Shown here piece by piece: positions 21,259 to 22,354 of a stretch of DNA of 64,000 nt. The DNA comes from Escherichia coli (GTDB lineage Bacteria; Pseudomonadota; Gammaproteobacteria; Enterobacterales; Enterobacteriaceae), in NCBI RefSeq assembly GCF_013315695.1, contig NZ_CP054353.1; one strand, given 5' to 3'. How positions within the stretch are numbered: the stretch's first letter is position 1; each line of letters starts with the position of its first letter. The position numbers and the translations under genes were made by a program. The notes below the pieces were generated by a model that saw only the letters and a program-made list of their open reading frames with translations, was not told where the DNA came from and did no database searches.

Positions 21259-21461
21259 TGAGCTTTCATCCTATGAAATTAATTGCTGTTAAAAGCATTG
21301 GGTAAAGAAAATACCCATAGCTCCATACCCGGAGTCAGTTTTTAAAAACTGTTTAAAGAAATGCACAAGTATTGTGATTGATTTTTTAGTTGTTTTTCTT
21401 GATGAGAAGCTGATGCAAAATTCCGTCTTTATAATGAAAATGATGCCAAAGCGAATGACAA

Positions 21462-21470
21462 GGTTGTAGT
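21462..21470. repeat. 9-bp target-site duplication of IS1 copy 1 (ggttgtagt); second copy at 22239..22247
   Basis: Identical 9-mer directly flanks both IS1 ends. Confidence 0.88.
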
Positions 21471-21525
21471 GGTGATGCTGCCAACTTACTGATTTAGTGT
21501 ATGATGGTGTTTTTGAGGTGCTCCA

Positions 21526-21801
21526 GTGGCTTCTGTTTCTATCAGCTGTCCCTCCTGTTCAGCTACTGACGGGGTGGTGCGTAACGGCAAAAGCACCGCC
21601 GGACATCAGCGCTATCTCTGCTCTCACTGCCGTAAAACATGGCAACTGCAGTTCACTTACACCGCTTCTCAACCCGGTACGCACCAGAAAATCATTGATA
21701 TGGCCATGAATGGCGTTGGATGCCGGGCAACAGCCCGCATTATGGGCGTTGGCCTCAACACGATTTTACGTCACTTAAAAAACTCAGGCCGCAGTCGGTA
21801 A
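21526..21801 (+). CDS. insA: IS1 InsA protein
   Basis: 91-aa [20 protein letters not shown]... with zinc-finger cysteines. Confidence 0.93.
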
Positions 21802-22223
21802 CCTCGCGCATACAGCCGGGCAGTGACGTCATCGTCTGCGCGGAAATGGACGAACAGTGGGGCTATGTCGGGGCTAAATCGCGCCAGCGCTGGCTGTTTT
21901 ACGCGTATGACAGGCTCCGGAAGACGGTTGTTGCGCACGTATTCGGTGAACGCACTATGGCGACGCTGGGGCGTCTTATGAGCCTGCTGTCACCCTTTGA
22001 CGTGGTGATATGGATGACGGATGGCTGGCCGCTGTATGAATCCCGCCTGAAGGGAAAGCTGCACGTAATCAGCAAGCGATATACGCAGCGAATTGAGCGG
22101 CATAACCTGAATCTGAGGCAGCACCTGGCACGGCTGGGACGGAAGTCGCTGTCGTTCTCAAAATCGGTGGAGCTGCATGACAAAGTCATCGGGCATTATC
22201 TGAACATAAAACACTATCAATAA
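21720..22223 (+). CDS. insB: IS1 InsB reading frame (expressed as InsAB' transposase by -1 frameshift)
   Basis: 167-aa ORF overlapping the insA 3' end in the -1 frame. Confidence 0.88.
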
Positions 22224-22354
22224 GTTGGAGTCATTACCGGTTGTAGTTTTCACTACATGTCCATACATAAAATGGGGTAACATTCACGCGCCTGGTAGCG
22301 TTACCAACGCTACGCTCAAACATAATGATTCTAATAAAACCTCAGGAGACTACT

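Follow-up and report, generated by a model that had tools for sequence, protein, structure and literature searches.

An IS1A-type Insertion in the yejO–narP Intergenic Region of Escherichia coli, a Supported IS1 Target Hot Spot, and Its Plausible Effect on the narP Leader

Introduction

Some regulatory regions of Escherichia coli are struck by insertion sequences again and again. For example, the AT-rich, H-NS-bound regions upstream of bglR and flhDC have repeatedly received IS1 and IS5, in both orientations and within approximately 100–200 bp. At those loci an insertion switches on an operon that is otherwise silenced, and defined conditions select for it. IS1 prefers particular AT-rich segments and reuses sites, and it is classically polar. 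The yejO–narP locus described here resembles these AT-rich regulatory hot spots in the repeated arrival of IS1 and IS5 in both orientations over a similarly short stretch. It differs in that the insertions would part a promoter from its gene instead of lifting silencing.

NarP and NarL control the genes of nitrate and nitrite respiration, including the adjoining nap and ccm operons, and Hfq, RprA, and SdsN adjust how much NarP is made by acting on a long leader. In K-12, the 5′ UTR of narP measures 150 nt from the most distal start site, and expression was seen from a PnarP(-207..+50)-lacZ fusion (Brosse et al. 2022, PMC9262595). A uORF of 8 aa is predicted within the initial 50 nt of this leader, and RprA exerts a second repression that does not depend on pairing and requires only the segment +1..+50; a narP construct with a 78-nt leader keeps the RprA repression that acts via the ribosome-binding region (PMC9262595).

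In the literature searched, the only reports touching on insertion sequences at yejO–narP concerned the IS5 of K-12 and, in Shigella, a prophage context. We found no description of the locus as an IS hot spot or of an IS in the narP leader, and no H-NS binding or expression data for it.

Materials and Methods

The window analysed in this study is a stretch of 64,000 nucleotides from the E. coli contig NZ_CP054353.1 (assembly GCF_013315695.1). Intergenic positions were numbered from 1, adjoining the yejO ATG, to 319, which directly precedes the narP ATG. Of 5,426 complete E. coli genomes, 5,423 matched a 519-nt query for the empty site; the match was at least 80% contiguous in 5,352, and 71 genomes had a disrupted site. 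Baits composed of the flanks and IS1 in each orientation were used for the search, and 22 representative loci were retrieved and their junctions mapped. The counts of IS1 events are lower bounds, with undercounting in genomes that carry 40 or more IS1 copies. Event density was judged against that in the neighbouring coding sequence of yejO, taken as baseline and internal control.

Results and Discussion

The Inserted Element Is an Ordinary IS1A

The feature coordinates are collected in Table 1. The element begins with GGTGATGCTGCC and ends with GAGTCATTACC (reading of 20900–22700), and it is identical to K-12 IS1A at 767 of 768 positions. The preliminary description had reported a complete IS1 with a 9-bp duplication, 212 bp from yejO and 116 bp from narP, and these statements proved exact: the spacer between the yejO start codon (ending at 21258) and IS1 is 21259–21470, and that between IS1 and the narP ATG (22355) is 22239–22354. 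The length of approximately 768 bp, the imperfect repeats of approximately 23 bp beginning with GGT, and insA and insB' joined by A6C are those of the IS1 family. The domains Zn_ribbon_InsA, HTH_Tnp_IS1, and DDE_Tnp_IS1 (E = 3.5e-78) were all above the Pfam cut-offs in InsAB'. The 9-bp duplication at 204–212 falls within the 8–9 bp expected of the family, and the other IS1 insertions at this locus also have duplications of 8 or 9 bp. Two copies of the 23-nt IS1 end are present in the window, where chance would give 0.

Table 1. Features of the yejO–narP region in the window, and IS insertions mapped in this region across E. coli genomes (intergenic numbering as in Materials and Methods; TSD, target-site duplication).
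Feature	Window position	Intergenic position	Strand or orientation	Remarks
yejO	18667–21258		−	intact 863-aa autotransporter; AIDA, Pertactin, and Autotransporter domains (Pfam)
Candidate −10 (CAAAAT), distal narP promoter	21416–21421		+	predicted from the start-site position
narP long leader, +1 to +43, now severed	21428–21470		+	predicted for the window from 317/319 identity
8-codon uORF of the narP leader	21443–21469	185–211	+
Left TSD copy, GGTTGTAGT	21462–21470	204–212		9 bp
Complete IS1 (IS1A type)	21471–22238		+	768 bp; insA to insB' toward narP
IS1 left terminal inverted repeat, GGTGATGCTGCCAACTTACTGAT	21471–21493		+	18/23 match to the right end
insA	21526–21801		+	91 aa, GTG start
insB' reading frame	21720–22223		+	fused InsAB' transposase of 232 aa, open
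A6C −1 frameshift motif	21777–21783			IS1 position 307
IS1 right terminal inverted repeat	22216–22238		−
Right TSD copy, GGTTGTAGT	22239–22247			9 bp
narP-proximal 107 bp	22248–22354		+	IS-free in all mapped genomes
−10-like TAAAAT	22268–22273	233–238
Proximal narP start zone	~22277	near 242		predicted from the 78-nt-leader construct cited in PMC9262595
RprA/SdsN pairing region	22320–22358
narP response regulator	22355–23002		+	215 aa; Response_reg and GerE (Pfam)
IS1 (IS1A)		204–212	forward	GGTTGTAGT; window and MSB1_4I
IS1		176–183	forward	ATGAAAAT; 1 genome
IS1 (IS1A)		158–165	forward	CAAAATTC; 5 genomes, plus derivatives
IS1 (variant, 94.5% identical)		134–141	forward	GTTTTTCT; 1 genome
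IS1		right junction 187	forward	deletions into yejO; 7 genomes
IS1 (IS1B)		right junction 100	forward	deletion
IS1		198–206	reverse
IS1 (IS1X2)		188–195	reverse
IS1 (IS1B)		158–165	reverse	same site as forward IS1A; 1 genome and 2 deletion derivatives keeping the 158 junction
IS1 (IS1X2)		−7..1	reverse	across the yejO ATG
IS5		140–143	opposite to K-12 IS5K	NZ_CP070048.1
ISKpn26 (IS5 family)		21–24	opposite to K-12 IS5K	NZ_CP148374.1

The element is an ordinary IS1A, and the RefSeq annotation already lists it, as an IS1A family transposase with programmed frameshift. It shares with K-12 IS1A the length, the inverted repeats, insA, A6C, insB', the Pfam domains, and the 9-bp duplication, and differs in chromosomal location alone; K-12 has no IS1 at yejO–narP. 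When IS1 and one copy of the duplication were deleted in silico, an intergenic region of 319 bp was restored that agrees with K-12 MG1655 at all but 2 positions. An assembly artefact was considered and rejected, given the perfect duplication and the identical arrangement in the complete RefSeq genome of MSB1_4I.

The list of open reading frames starts narP at an upstream in-frame ATG (22325), whereas RefSeq starts it at 22355, which is the start used here. On the far side of yejO, an IS4 (approximately 17160–18583, with a transposase ORF at 17172–18518 on the minus strand) lies approximately 20 bp downstream of the proL tRNA and has a 13-bp duplication relative to K-12. Thus, yejO is bracketed by IS4 and IS1 and is still intact.

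The IS5K of K-12 Lies Inside yejO

According to the preliminary description, K-12 carries IS5 at this same junction and its yejO is a pseudogene. The second statement was borne out, with IS5 as the cause. The first holds for the neighbourhood and fails for the exact junction: in MG1655, IS5K occupies 2288919–2290113 and the first yejO fragment 2290114–2290180, so the element lies within the yejO coding sequence, 67 bp past the start codon and approximately 279 bp from the window IS1 site. Table 1 of PMC11677980 likewise places the K-12 IS5 copy inside yejO. The 319-bp intergenic region of MG1655 is intact.

The two insertions are alike in adjoining the 5′ end of yejO, and in both the element lies downstream of a native promoter able to read into it (PMC11677980). 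They differ in that IS5K belongs to another family, has a 4-bp duplication, and disrupts the yejO coding sequence at +67, leaving the whole 319-bp region upstream of narP untouched. The K-12 IS5/yejO junction was present in 357 of the 5,426 complete genomes; a sample of these consisted entirely of laboratory or K-12-type strains. With a distance-tuned bait for IS5 in the K-12 orientation at approximately 28–212, no natural genome was found; only two laboratory K-12 derivatives gave partial matches.

IS1 Has Entered the Intergenic Region Many Times

The disrupted sites could be explained in approximately 27 of the 71 genomes, 25 by IS1 and 2 by elements of the IS5 family. The junctions revealed at least 10 independent IS1 insertions between intergenic −7 and 212, nine of which fall within 113 bp (100–212). 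They occur in both orientations and involve IS1A, IS1B, IS1X2, and a variant that is approximately 94.5% identical. In the yejO coding sequence, approximately 8 further IS1 events were located between −96 and −1264. In contrast to the clustered segment, positions 213–319 and narP carried no IS insertion in any mapped genome.

Several strains keep the IS1–narP junction (158, 187, or 100) and have lost 0.2–1.3 kb of yejO or are joined there to prophage DNA; the derivatives of the forward insertion at 158–165, for example, retain the 158 junction and are deleted into yejO or joined to prophage DNA. Such one-sided junctions are typical of IS1-mediated adjacent deletions or rearrangements, and they are like the IS1-mediated ompC–rcsC deletion of E. 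coli B. Unlike these cases, the window IS1 has both copies of its duplication and no deletion.

If the mapped events were spread evenly over −1500..319, 1.1 of the 18 would be expected in the 113-bp segment, whereas 9 were found there (binomial P = 4e-7, for a segment, 100–212, that was picked after the data had been seen). The density of IS1 is approximately 80 events/kb in 100–212 and approximately 5/kb in the first 1.5 kb of yejO. Exact sites were also reused, 158–165 in both orientations and 187 and 188 as neighbours. In sum, 220 bp hold at least 10 IS1 events, of which the post hoc segment of 113 bp holds 9, against approximately 8 in 1.5 kb of yejO, and these data support the view that the stretch is a regional IS1 target hot spot. 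A hot spot had been suggested in the preliminary description from the coincidence with K-12. It now stands on other ground, namely the events across genomes (at least 10 of IS1 and 2 of the IS5 family), since the occupancy tabulation proposed there, once run on 5,426 E. coli genomes, yielded multiple independent insertions.

A simple explanation would be that the cluster only reflects harmless sites beside a dispensable and often decayed gene, with neither target preference nor regulatory effect. The state of yejO agrees with this, as it is a pseudogene or truncated in many strains (by the K-12 IS5, by internal stops, and by IS1 at approximately 8 coding sites), and IS1 is also common in other dispensable genes nearby, such as atoS/atoC and those of the ompC–rcsC deletion in E. 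coli B. We nevertheless consider tolerance as the sole cause very unlikely, because the first 1.5 kb of yejO is equally dispensable and has a density of approximately 5/kb instead of 80/kb, and because exact sites were reused.

The yejO–narP spacer has a GC content of 26–36% and many A/T tracts. AT-richness alone does not explain the clustering, since positions 1–99 are equally AT-rich (33% GC) and received only one IS1 and one ISKpn26. A site for IHF was tried as the reason for targeting and rejected, as no match to the consensus (WATCARNNNNTTR, at most 1 mismatch) was found in the 319 bp. We infer that the clustering arises from a preference of IS1 for AT-rich or bent DNA together with the tolerance of the locus for insertions; the structure of the DNA there, proteins bound to it, or selection may each play a part.

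Beyond this locus, IS1 in atoS/atoC was seen in many unrelated genomes, and the whole E. coli B lineage carries the IS1-linked ompC–rcsC deletion. With a composite bait of four other intergenic regions and IS1, the matches were dominated by E. coli B and by atoS/atoC copies of IS1 within joining distance. IS1 events are generally abundant in this 30-kb neighbourhood.

The Insertion Falls within the Predicted narP Leader

With the narP ATG at intergenic position 320, transfer of the distal start site from K-12 places it at 170 (window 21428). The 8-codon uORF, ATGCCAAAGCGAAYGACAAGGTTGTAG, was found exactly where this mapping predicts it, with the codons ATG CCA AAG CGA A(C/T)G ACA AGG TTG TAG. 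Because the uORF stands at the predicted place within +1..+50, the mapping of the distal start site is validated. At window position 21456 (intergenic 198), the window has a C-to-T difference from K-12, which changes codon 5 of the uORF from Thr to Met (MPKRMTRL).

On this map, the window IS1 parts +43 from +44 in the long leader, and the stop codon of the uORF is part of the duplicated target. What is still joined to narP is intergenic 204–319, with TAAAAT, the implied proximal start, and the RprA/SdsN pairing site. The preliminary description had proposed that IS1 may separate narP from native promoter elements, and for narP this is supported, since the distal start, 150 nt upstream in K-12, is outside the attached 116 bp and the narP promoters do not lie wholly within that segment. 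A simple promoter scan for sigma-70 gave no good match at either narP promoter, and the promoter assignments are therefore weak. In a search of Rfam, no known RNA family was present in 21000–23200.

We believe that a recent, strain-specific transposition of an IS1A-type element into an AT-rich hot spot, cutting the narP leader from its distal promoter, is the likely account of this allele. An active element would have moved into the short AT-rich part of the divergent yejO–narP control region and landed within the transcribed leader. Transcripts from the distal promoter, with 43 nt of leader and the uORF, would then enter IS1 in the direction in which insA is read, and narP would most likely be expressed from the proximal promoter only, the core of which would lie within the attached 116 bp. 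The control by RprA that acts via the first 50 nt of the long leader would be lost, while the RprA/SdsN pairing site at the ribosome-binding region would be retained. The gene yejO retains its entire coding sequence and the 212 bp upstream of it.

Read-through across IS1 is probably weak, because IS1 is classically polar and approximately 440 nt of mostly untranslated RNA follow the insA stop; some read-through could still deliver distal transcripts to narP. For other IS1 copies, transcription from upstream raises IS1 expression and transposition (PMC12428005), and by analogy it may raise the transposase expression of the window copy.

Taken together, a regulatory effect of IS1 on narP is plausible from its position. 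The window allele, in which narP would be left without its distal promoter and the initial 43 nt of its leader, may offer a ready-made test of the role of the long leader outside the laboratory, and approximately 10 other natural IS alleles could serve as a graded series running from the −35 zone through the −10 zone into the early leader. Otherwise, the polymorphism is a routine one for IS1, in a strain rich in this element, and is usable as a strain marker and as an example of site reuse by IS1.

Selection as an Explanation of the Cluster

The other insertions fall in the −35 zone (134–141, and IS5 at 140–143), the −10 zone (158–165), and the early leader (176–212), and the candidate distal −10, CAAAAT, is itself the IS1 target 158–165 of other strains. 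From their positions, all the insertions at 134–212 would uncouple the distal promoter from narP and spare the proximal promoter. It may therefore be asked if the insertions at 100–212 were selected in parallel, for the uncoupling of narP or for an altered expression of yejO. The nine clustered IS1 and the IS5 at 140–143 all strike the distal promoter or the first 43 nt of the leader, the proximal 107 bp were never struck in the mapped genomes, the equally AT-rich segment 1–99 is nearly empty, and many strains have IS1-mediated deletions that remove the 5′ end of yejO. Against selection, every event is rare (1 to 7 genomes of 5,426) with no sweep through a lineage, and the empty proximal 107 bp is explained equally well by purifying selection on narP. 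Moreover, AT-rich preference and site reuse are known for IS1, and the two reused sites, with opposite orientations, fit target preference. We regard adaptive rewiring as unlikely.

A stronger form of the idea, which we hold to be less likely still, is that yejO–narP is a recurrent selected switch point, at which IS1 and IS5 repeatedly disable the distal narP promoter or sever approximately 43 nt of leader. If this were true, NarP would be freed from uORF and RprA (Rcs-linked) control, or lowered, in certain gut or food-animal lineages, and the locus would present a natural parallel evolution, by mobile elements, of the post-transcriptional control of a two-component regulator.

No Promoter Facing narP Was Detected at the IS1 Ends

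IS1 could also donate a promoter to narP or yejO, be it an outward or hybrid one situated at an end of the element or, by read-through, that of insA. The direction of insA toward narP in the window is compatible with such a role, and Prentki et al. in 1986 reportedly found that IS1 can make hybrid promoters with a −35 in its end. In our promoter scan, no promoter-like site was found across either IS1 end, the sole match in IS1 being the known inward promoter in the left end (21478–21505), and there was no case of a −35 in an IS end 16–18 bp from a −10 in the flank; the scan also found no terminator on the plus strand inside IS1. Between TTGGAG at the right end and the closest −10-like hexamer there are approximately 35–37 bp, too long a distance for a promoter. 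The independent insertions in both orientations also argue against donation, as does the long untranslated stretch after insA, which favours Rho-dependent polarity. These results make promoter donation highly improbable. The outward promoter activity mentioned in the preliminary description is thus unsupported: no promoter match faces narP, both orientations occur, and IS1 is polar.

Relation to MSB1_4I and the Second IS1 Copy

The exact forward insertion at 204–212 was shared only with MSB1_4I (NZ_LR898874.1) among the 5,426 complete E. coli genomes. MSB1_4I is an isolate of a human rectal swab from Australia, and over 37.5 kb the window differs from it by 5 bases. Another IS1 copy, with exactly the sequence of the first, is located at 51565–52332 on the minus strand, with the 9-bp duplication ATCTGGGCC. 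It interrupts atoS after approximately 522 bp of the gene, and the RefSeq record of MSB1_4I lacks it, which marks the window as belonging to a sister genome or assembly and points to ongoing IS1 activity in this lineage.

The two copies in the window are inverted, 29 kb apart, and bracket narP, ccm, nap, ompC, and rcsDBC, and an inversion between them is conceivable. At IS1 position 262 (window 21732), both window copies and K-12 IS1A have A, and the copy in NZ_LR898874.1 has T, which is synonymous in insA. This difference could be due to gene conversion, to a polishing difference, or to real divergence of sister isolates.

Downstream of narP, the convergent spacer between narP and ccmH (23003–23036) is 34 bp in the window and 210 bp in K-12, where an extra REP-like insert of approximately 176 bp lies between two copies of the same hairpin. 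Both short and long spacers occur among the retrieved strains.
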